NCBI GenBank assembly: GCA_963785045.1
Contig: CAWAUC010000013.1
Coordinates: 204,577-268,576 of the forward strand
Direction: 5' to 3'
From: an uncultured delta proteobacterium
GTDB taxonomy: Bacteria; Desulfobacterota; Desulfobacteria; Desulfobacterales; SpSt-501
DNA: 64,000 nt
Part shown: positions 20,807 through 64,000 of the stretch, one piece after another
How positions within the stretch are numbered: the first letter of the stretch is position 1
Layout: each line of letters begins with the position of its first letter
The notes under the pieces: generated by a model
The model's database searches: none
Told to the model about the DNA's origin: nothing
What the model saw: only the letters and a program-made list of their open reading frames with translations
Position numbers and translations under genes: made by a program

Positions 20807-20906
20807 CGGGGGCGTTGGCGAAGCCAGGGAGTTTTCTGCGGCGGCCCCTGCGCACGGCAGACCCCAGCGGGCCGCTATGCGAATCGACAGAATCGCTCAA
20901 GTTAGG
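20807..20906 (+). repeat. Partial copy (right end) of the long-hairpin element
   Basis: 88/100 nt identical to 28462-28561. Confidence 0.9.
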
Positions 20907-26927: not shown

Positions 26928-28157
26928 TTAAGGAAGCCCGGCCAGGTACTGACAGGCCGGGGCGATCAGGATCGTCTGGTCGTCGTTGGATATCCGCCGG
27001 TAGCCTGCCGCCGTTCGCACCAAGTGAATCGCAGGCACCTTCAATGCGGTCTGGAACTTGATCAGGGCCGCCGACGGCTGGAGCTCATCCGCCCTTGCAT
27101 CGATCAGCAGCACTGGTTTGCCGTTGTTGCTGATGATGAAATCAACCTCCTGTTGGTCCTTGGTCCGGATGAAGTTCAGGCCGAAGCAGCCATAGCCCAG
27201 CTCGTTCCAATTCGACACCGCCCGGAAGAGCTCGAGGGCCACCATGTTCTCGAAGCGCGCCGCAGGGTGCTCCACGCGCGGGGCGTCCCACAGGTAGATC
27301 TTTTGTCCCTCTCGGATCGCGCGCGGGATCCCGCGCGTCCAGGGCGCGAGGCTGAGCACCGCGAAGAAACGCTGCAGCGTGAAAATCCAGCTGCGAATGG
27401 TGTTGTAGGCCATTTGAAGCCCCTGGGCCAAGGCCGGCACGGACGAAAGCTGCCCCACCTGGGCCGGCAGCAGCTGGTAGAGGGTCGCCAGCTCGTCAAT
27501 GGCCTTGATCCCCGTCAGATCCCGGATGTCCTCCCGGATCAACTGCTCGGCATAGGCGGTCGACCAGCGCCGGTAGGAGGTCTTGCGCCCGGACAAATAC
27601 GGCTCGGGAAACCCGCTGTGCTCCGAGAGCGTCTGCCACAGCTCCTGCAGCTCGCCCTGTCGCTCCATGCAGACCAGCTGCGGATGGGCGAAAAACTCCT
27701 CGGCGTTCAGGTTGGCCCGGCCCAACTCCGCCTGGGTGAAAGGCCACAGGTGCAGCAGGTAATACCGCCCGGCCAGGGAGTCCCCGCGCCGCTGGGGGTA
27801 GTCCAGCCGGCTGGAGCCTGCGATCAGGAATTGATAGTCGTCCTGGAACCGGTCATAGATTCCCTTCAGGTATTTGCGCCATCCGCGGTGCTTGTTGATC
27901 TCGTCAAACATTACGAACGGGGTGGATTCGTCCCGGCGCTCGACCGTCTCGAAAAAGGCGGGCTCCCGGATCAGGCGCGCGCGGTCCCCGGGGATCTCCC
28001 AGCTCAGGTACACCTGGTTCGGAAACGACTCGGCGATCATCTCCCCCAGGGTCGTCTTGCCCACGCGCCGCGCCCCCGCCATGAAGACCATGCGCTTTTC
28101 CTTGGTCAGTTCCGTCCAGATATGTCGGTACAGGGGTCGATCCAGCATGCCCGGCAT
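26928..28157 (-). CDS. AAA_14 / DUF4143 ATP-binding protein
   Basis: GARRVGKTT, FDEI, GSS...SLAGR, GFPEP, KIYLWD, ENMV..EL, EVDFII; start uncertain (28148, 28157 or 28184). Confidence 0.85.
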   Translation of the reverse strand: MPGMLDRPLYRHIWTELTKEKRMVFMAGARRVGKTTLGEMIAESFPNQVYLSWEIPGDRARLIREPAFFETVERRDESTPFVMFDEINKHRGWRKYLKGIYDRFQDDYQFLIAGSSRLDYPQRRGDSLAGRYYLLHLWPFTQAELGRANLNAEEFFAHPQLVCMERQGELQELWQTLSEHSGFPEPYLSGRKTSYRRWSTAYAEQLIREDIRDLTGIKAIDELATLYQLLPAQVGQLSSVPALAQGLQMAYNTIRSWIFTLQRFFAVLSLAPWTRGIPRAIREGQKIYLWDAPRVEHPAARFENMVALELFRAVSNWNELGYGCFGLNFIRTKDQQEVDFIISNNGKPVLLIDARADELQPSAALIKFQTALKVPAIHLVRTAAGYRRISNDDQTILIAPACQYLAGLP

Positions 28158-28270
28158 TGTTTCATCATACTGAAAGATAGTCAAGTCTAAATTTCATTGG
28201 CGTCAAACTTAACCATATACTATTAGTTGTCAATTGTTTTTCGCCTCCGGTTTGATTTAACCTATCGCTG

Positions 28271-28561
28271 AGTTGAGCGGTTCTGATTTTGGTTTTGGCG
28301 GACCGACCCGCTGGGGTCTGCCGTCCGCATGTGCCGCCGCAATTTTTGCCCCGGCCGTCGCGACGGCAGCAGGGCCGCTCAAATATCCCCAGAAAGCCCC
28401 GGAACCCAGCGCTCCACGACAGAGACTGCCGCCGCTGCCGGTGAGGGGGTTATCGAAACCCCGGGGGCGCTGGCGTAGCCTGGGTGTTTTTTGCGGCGGC
28501 ACATGCGGACGGCAGACCCCAGCGGGCCTCGATGGGAATCGACAGAATCGCTCAATTTAGG
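28271..28561. repeat. Long-hairpin palindromic element, copy 1
   Basis: Perfect 36-bp inverted arms 28307-28342/28491-28526 around a 148-bp core; outer IR AGTTGAGCGGTTCTG / CAGAATCGCTCAATT. Confidence 0.9.
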
Positions 28562-28667
28562 CTATAGTTGCTCGACTGGGATGTATTCTGCATTCCCGGG
28601 CGTGTGACGGCATTTCAGCGAAAAACAAGTAAGATGGCTTTTTAAAGAATCCAATTGCGGAGTTGCG

Positions 28668-29537
28668 ATGGACCCAGTGGACGCAACAAGACATGCTCGT
28701 CAGGTAAGGGACTACTACGACCGCAACACCGGGCGCTTTTTAAGGTGGGGAAAAGACGAAGGCACCGGCAACCTCCACGGTGCCTTGTGGCCGCCCGAGG
28801 TCAACTCCCTGAGCGCGGCCATGCATTTTTCCAACGAGTTGATGGCGCGCGAGATAGAGCAATGTCCCATCCCCGTGAACCGCGTGCTCGACCTGGGCTG
28901 CGGAGTGGGCGGCAGCCTTTTTTACCTCGGGCGGCGGCTGCCCGGGGTTCGATGCTTCACGGGCATCAGCCTGAGCCCGGTGCAAATCGACAGCGCCCGC
29001 CAGCGCATCCCTGAAACCCAGAATCGCCGGTTTCATTTCGAAGAAGGCTGTTTCTTGCAGCTTCCGGCCGAACGATTCAAGACCGACTTTTCCTATGCCA
29101 TCGAAGCCTTCGCACACGGGCCTCATCCCGATGCTTTTTTCGGCGTTCAAGCGGGCGTCTTGCCGCCCGGCGGTCGCCTGGCCATCATCGACGATTTCCT
29201 GAGCGATGAGCTGCACACCGAAGGACGGCTGCTGGGCATTTACCGCCGGAATTGGCTGCTGCCGGGTTTGCGGGGCCTTGCCGCTCTGAAATCCCTCGCG
29301 GCAGAAAAGGGCTTGCGCCTCATCAAGGATCAAAACCTGACTCCGCATCTGCGCCTGGGCCGGCCGCGTGACAAGGCGATAACCGTGCTGGTGCGATGGC
29401 TTGGCCCCTGCATGGATCGCCACACCTATCTCAGGTCCCTGTTGGGCGGGGATGCCAAACAAAAATGCTATCGGGAAGGTCTGATCCATTATCGGCTCCT
29501 GGTCTTTGAAAAACGTGCAACAGATTCAGGAAAATGA
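28668..29537 (+). CDS. Class I SAM-dependent methyltransferase (sterol/tocopherol C-methyltransferase-like)
   Basis: VRDYYD, LHGALW, VLDLGCGVGG, GISLSPVQ, AIEAFAH, LPPGGRL. Confidence 0.8.
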   Translation: MDPVDATRHARQVRDYYDRNTGRFLRWGKDEGTGNLHGALWPPEVNSLSAAMHFSNELMAREIEQCPIPVNRVLDLGCGVGGSLFYLGRRLPGVRCFTGISLSPVQIDSARQRIPETQNRRFHFEEGCFLQLPAERFKTDFSYAIEAFAHGPHPDAFFGVQAGVLPPGGRLAIIDDFLSDELHTEGRLLGIYRRNWLLPGLRGLAALKSLAAEKGLRLIKDQNLTPHLRLGRPRDKAITVLVRWLGPCMDRHTYLRSLLGGDAKQKCYREGLIHYRLLVFEKRATDSGK

Positions 29538-40802: not shown

Positions 40803-40871
40803 GGTTGGCGGCTCTGCGACTGGTTTCGACTCAAGCGCTGGTAGAACCCCTGCGGGTGCCTATCCCGCATT

Positions 40872-41015
40872 AGTGCCCATCCATAAACGGCGTCTTTCGG
40901 CCCATGCCGGCGTTCTCGCTCTTCGCAATCCTCGGCAAAGTCTCACTTTGCCTGTGGTTGCGAAATCGCTGCGGCCTTGGCCTAAACCGAAATCCACCAT
41001 TTCTGGATGGACAGT
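40872..41015. mobile_element. MITE-like element
   Basis: Imperfect TIR AGTGCCCATCCATAAA / TTTCTGGATGGACAGT; central hairpin GGCAAAGT-CTC-ACTTTGCC. Confidence 0.6.
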
Positions 41016-41328
41016 TTAGCATGGCAGCCCCTAAAAAGCGAAACGCCGCGCACACTTTTTCCCGGTCCGGGGCGGCGCCCGGGGTGGAGCACGACCCGGT
41101 GCAAGACCCTTCTGTAGAGATGGCCGGTGGATCGAAGCACAATATGTGGGGTCGGCAGAAATCCTTTATTTTTCGGGGGATTCGGTCTGTTTTTCTATTG
41201 ACAACCCGTTTATTTTTCGGGATAGTAAAATCACGTTAATGTTAGTGGATATTGGTACTCGAGATGAAGTTGTTTTGTGAGATCCATCGATTTGCCACAT
41301 TCCCTATTCACTCGTGTTGAGGCTTCTG

Positions 41329-44406: not shown

Positions 44407-45657
44407 TTGGCCGTTCGTACGAACACGGTTGCGGCGACACTTTGCAGCCGCCGGATGATCGTTGCCCTTCTGATGGGTTTCTCCTGCGGCCTGCCCCTGC
44501 TGCTGACGCTGGGTGTCCTGCAGGCTTGGATGACCGAGGAGGGTGTCGATCTCACCTGGGTGGGCATGATCACCCTGGTGCAGAGCCCCTATTCCTGGAA
44601 GTTCCTGTGGGCCCCCGTTCTGGACCGCTTCACGCTGCCGTTTCTCGGCCGCCGCCGGGGGTGGCTGCTGGTCGCGCAGCTGGCGTTGATGGCGGCCATC
44701 GCCGCGCTGGCGTTCGCCGATCCGGTCAAGCGCCCGGTCTGGATGGTGGCGGCCGCGGTGCTCGTGGCCTTTTTCAGCGCCACCCAGGACACGGTCGTGG
44801 ACGCTTACCGCCGGGAGGATTTGCCCGATAGCGAGCTGGGACTCGGCTCCTCCATGTATGTTTACGGCTACCGCATCGGGATGTGGGCGGCCTCGGGGGG
44901 CGGCCTCATTCTGGCCGATCGTATGCCCTTCTCACAGGTCTACCTGGTGATGGCCGCAGGCATGCTGCTCGGCGTGCTGACGACCCTGCTTGCCCCCGAG
45001 CCCCGCGCGGCCAACGGTCTGCCGCTGTCGCTGCGGGAGGCCGCCTGGCAGCCTCTGTCCGATTTCTTCCGCCGGGATGGCGCCCTCTGGGTGCTGGCCT
45101 TCATCCTGCTTTACAAGGTCGGCGACAGCATGGCCGGCGCCGTCAGCATCCCCTTTTATCTCGAGCTCGGTTACTCCAAGTCCGAGATCGGCACGGTGGT
45201 CAAGCTCTTCGGGGCATGGGCCACCATCGCCGGCGGCATCCTCGGCGGCATCCTGATGCTGAAGACCGGCATCCAGCGCAGTCTCTGGGTGTTCGGCGGG
45301 CTTCAGGCGGTCTCGACCGCAGGTTTTGCCGTGCTGGCCCGCATCGGACCCAGCCTGCCGGCGCTTGCGACCGTGGTCGCCTTCGAGAGCATTACGGCCG
45401 GCATGGGAACCAGCGCCTTTGTCGCGTTTATCGCCAGCCTGACCAACCGCAAGTTCACCGCCACCCAGTACGCGCTGCTGACGAGCATCATGGGGCTTCC
45501 GCGGGTGCTGGCCTCGGCGCCGACGGGGTTTGCCGCCAAGCACCTGGGCTGGGAAGGCTTTTTCATCTTCTGCACCCTCGCGGCCATCCCGGGCATGCTG
45601 GTTCTCTGCCGCATCGCCCCCTGGCGAGCCCGCCCCGCGCCCACGGATTCCACGTAG
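44407..45657 (+). CDS. ampG: AmpG-family muropeptide MFS transporter
   Basis: GFSCGLPLLL, PYSWKFLWAPVLDRF..LGRRRGW, SATQD..VDAYR, FTATQYALL. Confidence 0.92.
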   Translation: MAVRTNTVAATLCSRRMIVALLMGFSCGLPLLLTLGVLQAWMTEEGVDLTWVGMITLVQSPYSWKFLWAPVLDRFTLPFLGRRRGWLLVAQLALMAAIAALAFADPVKRPVWMVAAAVLVAFFSATQDTVVDAYRREDLPDSELGLGSSMYVYGYRIGMWAASGGGLILADRMPFSQVYLVMAAGMLLGVLTTLLAPEPRAANGLPLSLREAAWQPLSDFFRRDGALWVLAFILLYKVGDSMAGAVSIPFYLELGYSKSEIGTVVKLFGAWATIAGGILGGILMLKTGIQRSLWVFGGLQAVSTAGFAVLARIGPSLPALATVVAFESITAGMGTSAFVAFIASLTNRKFTATQYALLTSIMGLPRVLASAPTGFAAKHLGWEGFFIFCTLAAIPGMLVLCRIAPWRARPAPTDST

Positions 45658-45686
45658 CATTTGCTTTGTGAATCGGGGCCTGTTAT

Positions 45687-46037
45687 TACTCCGGCAATTA
45701 TCACTCCGGCGATTAAATATGTAACATGGGCTGCTAAGGGAACCTTCCTTTTGTCGGCGGACCAGGGCAGGGCCCGGTGGGGGGCGGGGCCGCTGTCGGC
45801 CGCAGCCAGTGACACCTGGGCTGCGACAACGCCCCAGGGGTTTCTAGAATAGTCCCTCACAGGCAGCGCGGAAGTCTTTGTCGTGAGGCTGTGATCTGGG
45901 GGCTTTTCCGGGTATCTCGAAGCGGCCCGGCTGCCGCCCGTAGGAGCCCGGAAAAGATGTCTGCGGCCGACAGCGGCCCCACCCCCCACCGGGCCTCGTG
46001 GCAGCCACGACATTTGGCCTGTTTAATCGCCGGAGTA
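45687..46037. repeat. Long-hairpin palindromic element, copy 2 (opposite orientation)
   Basis: Perfect 15-bp TIR ACTCCGGCGATTAAA 45703-45717/46022-46036; 35-bp arms 45771-45805/45961-45995 (34/35); core homologous to 28343-28490. Confidence 0.9.
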
Positions 46038-46091
46038 CTAAAGAGGGTTGGGGCCCGCCGCGTTCAACCCCCTGAGGCCGACGGAACCGAC

Positions 46092-62373: not shown

Positions 62374-64000
62374 ATGCGCGATGAGAGCTTCTTCCTCCGG
62401 CCCGTCCACGAATGGCAGCGCCGCTATGAGGCCCTGCGAGCCTCCTTTGTCGAACGGCTGCCCGCCCGTATCATCGCCGAGCGTTTCGGCTACTCCCTAT
62501 CCTATGTGCACCTGCTCCGGCACCTGTTCACCTACCAGAAGATCGACTTCTCCGAACCCGTCCCCGAGGGCAAGGCCAACCGCCGCCGACTCGACTCCGC
62601 GCTCAAGGCCAAAATCTGCAACTGGCGTGAGCAGCGGCTGTCGGCCGGAGAGATCACTGCCCTCTTGTCCGAAGAAGGGGTTGAAATCTCGGTGCGCACC
62701 ATCGAGCGGGTGCTGGCCGAAGAGGGCTTCCCCAGACTGCCCCGAAGAAGCCGCCTGAAGCTCGGGCTGACGGTTAAGGGTGCTCAGGTGCCGGCCGTGG
62801 CAGAGAAGCTTGAGCTTGCCGAGATGCCCAAGAGTTCCTGGGAGTCGGAGGCCGCCGGCGTGTTGTTGTTTGCCCCCTTCATCGACCAGCTCAACCTGCC
62901 CAAGGTCGTGGAGGAGGCCGGCTTGCCCGGCACAAAAACGATCCCCGCCCTGAGCTATTTTTTATCCTTTCTCGCCCTCAAGCTGATCGGCACCGAGCGC
63001 TACGCGCATCTCACCGAGCATGCCTTCGATCCGGGCCTGGGTCTTTTTGCCGGTCTCAATGTGTTGCCCAAGTGCACGGCGATGTCCACCTACTCCTACC
63101 GCCTGGATGCGGTCCACCTGTTGCGTCTGCAGCAGAGCTTCGTCAAACAGGCCGCCCGGCTGCGGCTCTATGAGGCGGATCTGATCAATCTGGACTTCCA
63201 CACCATCCCCCACTACGGGGAGCAATCGGTTCTGGAGAACCACTGGGCCGGCTCCCGCAACAAGGCCATGAAGGGGGCGCTGGCCTTGTTTGCCCAGGAT
63301 GCCGCCTCCAAGCTCATCCTTTACACTGCAGCCGACATCCAACGCGACGAGGCCAGCGAGCAGGTCCTGGCTTTTCTCTCCTTCTGGAGAAAGCAGCAGC
63401 GGGGGCTTAAACCCACCTTCGTCTTCGACTCCAAGTTCACCAGCTATGCCAATCTCTCGGAGCTAAACCGCGCCGGGGTTCACTTCATCACTCTGCGGCG
63501 CCGGGGAAAATCCATGGTCGAGTGCCTGGAGGCGCTCTCCCCTTGGCAGCGTATCCATATCCCCCACGGCAAGCGAAAGTACCCCAACCCGATCGTCCAT
63601 GAATCGACCATCACGCTGCCCGATTACCAGGGGGAGCTGCGGCAGGTAATCATCCGCGGCAATGGGCGTGAAAAGCCTGCCTTTCTCATCTCCAATGACT
63701 TCGCCACCCCCACCGAGCTGCTCGTGGGCAACTATGCCCGTCGCTGGCGGGTGGAGAATGTGATCGCCGAGGCCGTCAAGTTCTTCAACCTCAATGCGCT
63801 ATCCTCCCCCATCCTGGTGAAGGTGCACTTTGACGTGGTCATGACCATGATCGCCGATACGCTCTACAGCCTTTTGGCCAGGAAGCTACGGGGATTTGAA
63901 GCCTGTGACGCCGCCAAGATCTATCGGCTCTTCGTCAAGGGCAAGGCCCGGGTCAGCTTTCGCCGCCAGAAGCTTACCGTCACTTTCCCGCGCAGGGCCC
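62374..64000 (+). mobile_element. IS transposase (DDE, IS4-superfamily-like) with N-terminal HTH; open to the window edge
   Basis: Uninterrupted frame from ATG 62374 (absent from the ORF track because it has no stop): NLDFHTIP, VFDSK, FITLR, YARRWRVEN; TTGACA at 62339 upstream. Confidence 0.88.

Follow-up and report, generated by a model that had tools for sequence, protein, structure and literature searches.

What keeps the two arms of a long DNA hairpin complementary while the arm sequence itself drifts from copy to copy? Two copies of an inverted-repeat element raise this question in a 64,000-nucleotide stretch of an uncultured Desulfobacterales genome (the window; C13:204577-268576 of the 5.46-Mb genome G000). 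The original prediction described a conserved core between arms that differ between the copies yet pair within each of them, and suggested a structured RNA or single-stranded DNA module under selection, carried between different terminal repeats. A comparison of 53 aligned copies has led us to a different reading. The hairpin is probably the interior of a non-autonomous type II MITE of ~295 bp, in which copying at the DNA level keeps the arms alike and inverts the spacer between them.

Results

Anatomy of the two copies and of their family

The palindrome of copy 1 agrees with its first description, having arms of 36 nt that are 100% complementary with 148 nt between them. It is far beyond chance: folded as single-stranded DNA, the whole copy reaches -101.5 kcal/mol, compared to -61.5 +/- 3.6 for shuffled sequences (z = -11.1; 0 of 200 as good). 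In copies aligned with their flanks, similarity reaches ~40 bp past each arm, to mutually inverted termini, CCTAAATTGAGCGATTCT and CCTGAGTTGAGCGGTTCT, inside which lie two unlike subterminal tails, a short one (X) and a long one (Y) (Table 1). The X-end tail has a small hairpin of its own (TCGAT..ATCGA), and the first base of the Y-end TIR of copy 1 is mutated relative to the consensus C. The core of copy 1 is in the Y-left state, in which the Y end lies to the left of the core and the X end to its right. Contigs of other copies from public runs diverge at 28268 and at 28560-28562, matching the borders of copy 1, and one contig each of runs X1 and X2 contains a joint of 28298 to 28510, which represents a short form.

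Table 1. Features of the hairpin MITE in the window
Feature	Position	Strand	Basis
Truncated A-type copy: X end and one arm; core and second arm lost	20836..20906	-	end-motif scan
Copy 1: left TSD, CTATC	28262..28266	.	4 of 5 bases same as right flank CTATA
Copy 1: complete A-type MITE, 295 bp	28267..28561	+	similarity among aligned copies begins and ends here
Copy 1: Y end, TIR GCTGAGTTGAGCGGTTCT plus long subterminal tail	28267..28306	+	Y-end motif scan, end classification
Copy 1: 5' arm of internal palindrome	28307..28342	+	inverted-repeat scan
Copy 1: core (spacer), 148 nt	28343..28490	+	found in both orientations relative to X/Y ends across copies
Copy 1: 3' arm of internal palindrome	28491..28526	+	inverted-repeat scan
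Copy 1: X end, TIR CCTAAATTGAGCGATTCT (read inward) plus short tail	28527..28561	-	X-end motif scan
Copy 1: right TSD, CTATA	28562..28566	.	TSD survey
Copy 2: B-type element, same arms and core in a different shell	45683..46041	-	inverted-repeat scan, copy alignment
Copy 2: arm, 3' arm on the strand co-oriented with copy 1	45771..45808	-	inverted-repeat scan
Copy 2: arm, 5' arm on the strand co-oriented with copy 1	45958..45995	-	inverted-repeat scan

Copy 1 lies between an AAA_14/DUF4143 gene (26928-28184, minus strand) and a methyltransferase gene (28668-29537, plus strand). A promoter-like hybrid at 28539-28568, consisting of TCGACA in the X end, an 18-nt spacer and TATAGT in the flank, points to the latter gene. 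A general outward hybrid promoter at the X end was rejected, as a -10-like flank is found at 5 of 40 X ends versus 5 of 38 Y ends.

Copy 2 carries the same arms and core between different ends. Its inverted repeat spans 38 nt at 95% or, in a separate scan, 35 bp with one mismatch around a 155-nt loop. As predicted, copies 1 and 2 can be aligned in reverse complement, with a mean column identity of 75%, and belong to one family; both contain the GGCAGC/GCTGCC pair, which is present in 51 to 52 of the 53 aligned copies. Their outermost repeats differ (TTGAGCG-type versus ACTCCGGCGATTAAA), and the module thus sits in two kinds of terminal repeat, the A/C shell and the B shell. B-shell termini read TTACTCCGGCRATYAAA, with TTA always outside; those of copy 2 are at 45698-45716 and 46022-46041, with an extra partial TIR at 45683-45699. 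At this end (45683-45716), two B-type terminal repeats overlap in tandem, TTATTACTCCGGCAATT and then TTATCACTCCGGCGATTAAA, and the outer of the two may be left over from another end. The neighbors of copy 2 are an MFS transporter gene (44407-45657) and a DUF6178 gene. For the B shell, a 5-bp duplication could not be established from the five full copies in G000, and the lone B-type end at G000 C14:5509, a lead to a partner insertion sequence (IS), has no clear transposase frame adjoining it.

A genome-wide search with the 148-nt core gives 35 blastn matches in G000. End motifs (50 X and 30 Y) outnumber the cores because many copies are derivatives: in 10 short forms, X and Y are joined via part of one or the other arm, the junctions falling at microhomologies (CCGCAA or GCCG, for example), and other truncated copies retain X and one arm. 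A nested origin, with the module inserting into an empty X-Y shell, was considered and rejected, since no clean empty shell was found and all 10 short forms keep arm remnants. Subfamily A has 22 full copies in G000 and occurs also in G021, G007 and G001; subfamily B comprises the five full copies in G000, copy 2 among them; and subfamily C, in G004 and G002, has termini as in A with diverged tails and arms. G004 contains at least 19 copies.

Of the 27 genomes of the GTDB family, 7 were found to contain the element, all of them in one genus, compared to 0 of 16 genomes representing 16 further families of the order. Scanning named records for its pattern returned 29 stretches, mostly in MAGs labeled Desulfatibacillum, Desulfobacterales or Desulfobacteraceae, and the whole element had no blastn match in plasmid and phage collections. 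A-type copies also lie on three contigs (L097, L098 and L102) in MAGs labeled Euryarchaeota and Blastocatellia. The flanks of L097 on both sides, and that of L102 on one side, are 84 to 92% identical to G000 DNA, and from their sequence these contigs look like mis-binned DNA of the same Desulfobacterales genus rather than transfers.

Target duplications and empty sites

Target duplications of 5 bp were surveyed in the 30 copies with both tips located. They are perfect in 12 copies and have one mismatch in 9, two in 6, three in 1 and four in 2, which places 21 of the 30 at no more than one mismatch. Three near-identical G004 copies (G004e, G004f and G004g) have three different perfect duplications. 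Empty sites were found as well: at seven loci of G001, G004 and G021, both flanks map 12 to 50 bp apart in G000, and in the alignments inspected by eye (3 of 6: G001a, G004f and G021c) the duplicated 5-mer is single in G000. At least four further loci in named MAGs likewise correspond to empty sites in G000. At one shared site, G021 has a full copy, and all that remains in G000 (C27:92880-92966) is CCTAAATTG fused to the second arm and the Y end. The 10 short forms occupy 10 different G000 loci, and flank pairs of those inspected include TTTCA/TTTCA and TTATA/TTATA. The element therefore has the properties of a MITE, being 295 bp long, without a transposase gene, bounded by CCTAAATTGAGCGATT-type TIRs at both ends and a 5-bp duplication, and present in dispersed copies with empty sites.

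Two other repeats accompany the family. One, with ends CTAACAGGGTGTTGAAAAAC, lies in G000 at C29:24213-24430 and C23:182925-183176, where relatives carry the hairpin MITE; a remnant of a hairpin-MITE Y end (C23:183161-183176) sits beside it, in the same flank as the G004o insertion. The other is an unrelated MITE of ~146 bp, seen at 40871-41016 of the window, with ends TAGTGYCCATCCA...TGGATGGRCACTA and a 13-nt end motif that has 167 matches in G000 at no more than one mismatch. It abuts or interrupts some hairpin-MITE copies, for example at C5:55820-55965.

Termini shared with an IS1380-family element

The congener G004 contains a partner IS (contig C41) of 1715 bp, with an open frame of 488 codons whose product scores 240 bits on the IS1380-family model NF033539 (cut-off 180). 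Its TIRs are CCTAAGCTGAGCGATT and CCTAAATTGAGCGATT, and it is flanked by the perfect 5-bp duplication TTCTA. Only the last 17 to 22 bp are common to this IS and the MITEs, with all 12 blastn matches falling within IS positions 1694-1715, and the X end of copy 1 agrees with the right end of the IS at 18 of 18 terminal bases. Under the definition of type II MITEs in PMC10969869, namely, non-autonomous elements that have only TIRs in common with an IS, this places the hairpin MITE among them.

A search of G000 itself found no IS whose termini match exactly. The single IS1380 element there that exceeds the cut-off, with a transposase gene at C8:133951-135144 (305.9 bits), has variant TIRs, CCCAAGAACCGCGATT and CCCAAAATCCGCGATT, which match the MITE terminus at 12 of 16 positions in a count made by hand. 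IS1380-family ends typically begin with CC and duplications measure 4 to 5 bp, and the ends of ISEcp1 resemble CCTAGATT. A 667-codon open frame at 62848-63939 of the window matches the IS1380 model weakly (58.4 bits; cut-off 180) and is probably the transposase of another family.

Mirrored changes in the arms

The covariation of the arms is real. Across the 53 copies, 97.0% of arm cells are paired versus 84.7% in shuffles (0 of 500 as high), and 23 of 30 arm pairs are altered on both sides. Mismatches are limited to 49 of 1937 pairs, and 22 of the 53 copies are perfect. The changes come in mirrored form, the A clade having 10 distinct mirrored arm variants and the C clade 18, and length changes are mirrored too: three copies have a 1-nt deletion in both arms, and G002a has 49-bp arms with extra bases in both. 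Each copy retains its own pairing while arm sequence drifts between lineages, and in our preferred reading this would be because arm is copied from arm. In G004, private mirrored changes amount to 0.0156 per pair per copy and the core private rate is 0.0142, as predicted by unbiased copying between the arms. The A clade behaves differently, since its private arm changes comprise 21 one-arm changes versus 1 mirrored change, at 43% of the core private rate. This one-sided excess, together with the low rate, indicates that homogenization is slow or that purifying selection contributes.

The original prediction saw in the family the reverse of the usual MITE pattern, with a conserved interior between drifting ends. 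The full alignment does not bear this out. Pairwise identity within A is 93% in the arms and 85% in the core; between subfamilies, arms and core diverge about equally fast (A versus B, 56% in the arms and 64.5% in the core; A versus C, 69 to 70% and 71%), and the true termini are conserved in A and C, as in any MITE. The reversed pattern appeared because an A copy had been compared with a B copy. The core is not featureless, with 67 of 154 columns conserved in all three clades and three runs of at least 6 columns (permutation P = 0.008). The clustered blocks include CGGCAGC and its complement GCTGCCG, CCGCT and GAAACCCCNGGGGCGTTG, and GAAACCCCNGGGGCG likewise counts as a conserved block; they do not fit a purely neutral spacer, and arm copying does not explain them.

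These conserved blocks, the one-sided changes of the A clade and the mismatches of one datable old copy (G021f, with 2 in 36 bp, not clearly fewer than neutral decay expects) make selection on the hairpin for the element's own spread a live rival. An extruded cruciform or a single-strand hairpin could, for example, join the X and Y termini for the transposase. Lineages losing pairing would then stop multiplying, and pairing would be kept by selection among copies and not by neutral copying. Most insertions are younger than the species splits, as judged from empty orthologous sites, yet cores within one genome differ by 15%, which means that much of the divergence arose in proliferating source lineages that kept their pairing. 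The greater conservation of arms than of core within A, the one-arm private changes at about half the core rate and the retention of the module in two different shells point the same way. However, the freshly transposed G004e, G004f and G004g, with their different perfect duplications, have 2 to 3 arm mismatches, so that perfect pairing is unnecessary for jumping; and an old-looking copy with decayed TIRs and no recognizable duplication (C11:245496) still has perfect 35-bp arms. The partner IS in G004 lacks such a palindrome, as do the short forms at their 10 loci, whose insertion could predate or postdate the deletion, and mirrored indels require a copying step regardless. On balance, we regard a need for the hairpin in spreading as rather unlikely, and its corollary of selection among copies as equally so.

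Orientation of the core

Relative to the ends, the core is X-left in 33 copies and Y-left in 15, and both orientations occur in A, in C and in G007. Two sister copies (C15:73248 and C8:62584) have a common shell variant and opposite core orientations. On the core tree we counted 12 orientation changes (bootstrap range, 11 to 13), at least 5 of them forced by well-supported branches, and on a tree of the shell only, 7 changes, with at least 2 forced. Among the public-run contigs, there was no locus with the core in both orientations and no strand-switch joint.

Two G004 copies, G004o and G004p (L068 and L069; G004:C17:25412-26429 and G004:C2:128406-129423), are at different loci with different duplications. 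Their arms, core and Y end are identical, and their X ends differ at several positions, a pattern that suggests sequence exchange between copies. Given such exchange, the inversion count on the core tree may be inflated.

Mirrored arm changes and the presence of both spacer orientations suggest that arm homogenization and spacer inversion take place at the DNA level. The original prediction had named intra-element gene conversion as an account of arm identity that would speak against selection, and the mirrored changes, indels included, and the repeated inversion of the spacer largely bear that account out.

The frequent occurrence of both orientations, scattered over the tree, is also what a mobile switch would produce, in which a site-specific recombinase flips the core at a conserved inner arm and places neighboring genes under phase-variable control. 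The inner 12 bp of the arms (GGCCGCCGCAA) are indeed conserved between the A and C clades, and copy 1 lies between divergently transcribed genes. We nevertheless hold such a switch to be extremely unlikely, as the core contains no promoter-like site, arm sequence varies from copy to copy over most of its length and no locus occurs in two states among the contigs. Furthermore, homologous recombination or template switching can act on 36 to 39 bp of perfect identity and needs no dedicated enzyme to do so.

Folding and coding potential of the core

A structured RNA should leave its mark on the core, and the proposal of one is not borne out there. No Rfam family matches the window at its gathering score (the best weak match has E = 0.27 and 20.3 bits versus a gathering score of 95), neither strand of the core by itself folds more stably than its shuffles (z = -0.31 and -0.37), and in the two predicted helices of the core 0 of 10 pairs are altered on both sides among the 53 copies. 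Arm mismatches comprise 20 of G.T type on the core strand, 11 of A.C type and 18 that pair on neither strand, without significant wobble bias (P = 0.15). The single arm mismatch of copy 2, described originally as a G-U pair, is indeed a T opposite G on the strand co-oriented with copy 1. It carries no RNA signal, since the same position on the same strand is C.A in the sister copy C13:114117; in the other three B copies it is T-A or C-G.

The arms and core could still be a selected structured RNA, such as a double-stranded hairpin processed by RNase III, an sRNA or a transcript stabilizer or terminator, with the shells as mere carriers. This reading would draw on the strong covariation of the arms, the slight excess of G.T over A.C mismatches (20 versus 11) and the short conserved core blocks, as well as on the location of 23 of 27 G000 copies between long open frames in a rough stop-to-stop scan, whose ORFs are not necessarily genes in this GC-rich genome. 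Run X11, an RNA library, has contigs that span parts of related copies, with 5 to 11 differences, and PMC10969869 reports RNase III cleavage of Correia-element hairpins in transcripts. Set against these points are the folding of the core, the absence of covariation within it and of an Rfam family at gathering score, the 18 of 49 arm mismatches without pairing on either strand and the arm position that reads T.G in one B copy and C.A in a second. Moreover, the core flips relative to its surroundings, and an outside promoter would therefore read either strand; the module of copy 1 contains no promoter-like site; and RNA contigs of run X10, which carry no strand or end information, cover the upstream neighboring gene only and not the element. 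Taken together, these data make a selected RNA very unlikely.

Coding potential was rejected as well. In line with the original prediction, no reading frame is conserved: the copies are mutually frame-shifted, the best frame is open in only 37 of the 53, and variability does not peak at the third codon position (0.109, 0.095 and 0.064), leaving no third-position excess.

A further reading takes the module to be functional cargo, a self-correcting, orientation-switching DNA cassette captured separately by two unrelated transposon shells. We think this quite unlikely. Were it true, the symmetric motifs CGGCAGC/GCTGCCG and CCCCNGGGG would be orientation-independent binding sites or part of a hairpin RNA, and the element would be mobile and regulatory or phase variable, residing in the intergenic regions of these relatives of sulfate reducers.

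Discussion

We propose the following model for the hairpin MITE. Its IS1380-family termini would be recognized in trans by the DDE transposase of that family, which would move it and generate the 5-bp target duplications. The near-perfect inverted repeat of 36 to 39 bp that lies between the unlike X and Y ends, with a spacer of ~148 nt, would allow the arms to interact as DNA, one arm being templated from the other. The copying could proceed by template switching during replication or by intramolecular recombination with gene conversion, and the data fit both routes equally; the same processes would also invert the spacer. In addition, the palindrome would act as a deletion hot spot and thus as a source of the many short derivatives. 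The anatomy, target duplications and empty sites of the element, its partner IS in G004, its mirrored arm changes, its two spacer orientations and its deletion derivatives are observed. We infer the molecular process that copies and flips, as well as its neutrality rather than selection.

Precedent for such a process is available. Flip-flop recombination of long inverted repeats is familiar from the plastid inverted repeat and the yeast 2-micron plasmid. Template switching between inverted-repeat arms yields arm homogenization and reversible spacer inversion according to PMC8604942, and PMC8794818 and PMC7202029 give the same outcome in outline.

The hairpin MITE carries a warning for scans of genomes for structured RNAs, as arm copying can give a long hairpin in repeated DNA strong "compensatory" covariation, which need not mean a structured RNA. 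With more than 50 copies, it also offers a natural series for the comparative study of arm homogenization, of spacer inversion and of deletion driven by the palindrome in bacterial genomes. In uncultured Desulfobacterales, it ties a MITE to a partner of the IS1380 family, and it helps account for the fragmentation of these metagenome assemblies.

How does the hairpin MITE compare with known systems? Like other type II MITEs, it is small (295 bp), non-coding, multicopy and mostly intergenic, has TIRs, a target duplication and empty sites, and shares identical TIRs and no other similarity with an autonomous IS. It differs from them in its long internal near-perfect palindrome, its flipping spacer and its ends, which are unlike beyond the TIR; in open-access literature text we found no account of a MITE that combines an internal palindrome with a flipping spacer. 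With the IS1380 family (ISEcp1, ISPme1 and relatives), the element has its termini in common, the G004 partner having the NF033539 transposase, TIRs and 5-bp duplication of that family, whereas the hairpin MITE is devoid of a transposase and of internal sequence common with the IS. Outward promoters, reported for the IS1380 family in PMC9330008, are not a general feature of the hairpin MITE.

Among processes, the closest likeness is to quasipalindrome correction by template switching, in which mirrored arm changes and reversible spacer inversion also occur together. The yeast spacers in PMC8604942 are a few bases long, whereas that of the hairpin MITE measures 148 nt and belongs to a mobile element with dozens of copies, in which the process is put forward from the comparison of copies.

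Correia elements, ERIC and REP/BIME are, like the hairpin MITE, repeated intergenic palindromic DNA able to fold in transcripts, yet they have no sequence relation to it. In Correia elements, the hairpin is made by the TIRs themselves, as PMC10969869 describes, and not by an internal palindrome; REP elements are 20 to 40 bp long and moved by a different enzyme. A palindrome-associated element of the IS200/IS605 type, with subterminal hairpins and neither TIR nor target duplication, was also considered and rejected, as the hairpin MITE has TIRs and a 5-bp duplication. Overall, the hairpin MITE is an ordinary kind of element, a MITE with IS1380-type ends, that has one unusual trait, a self-homogenizing palindrome with a flipping spacer.
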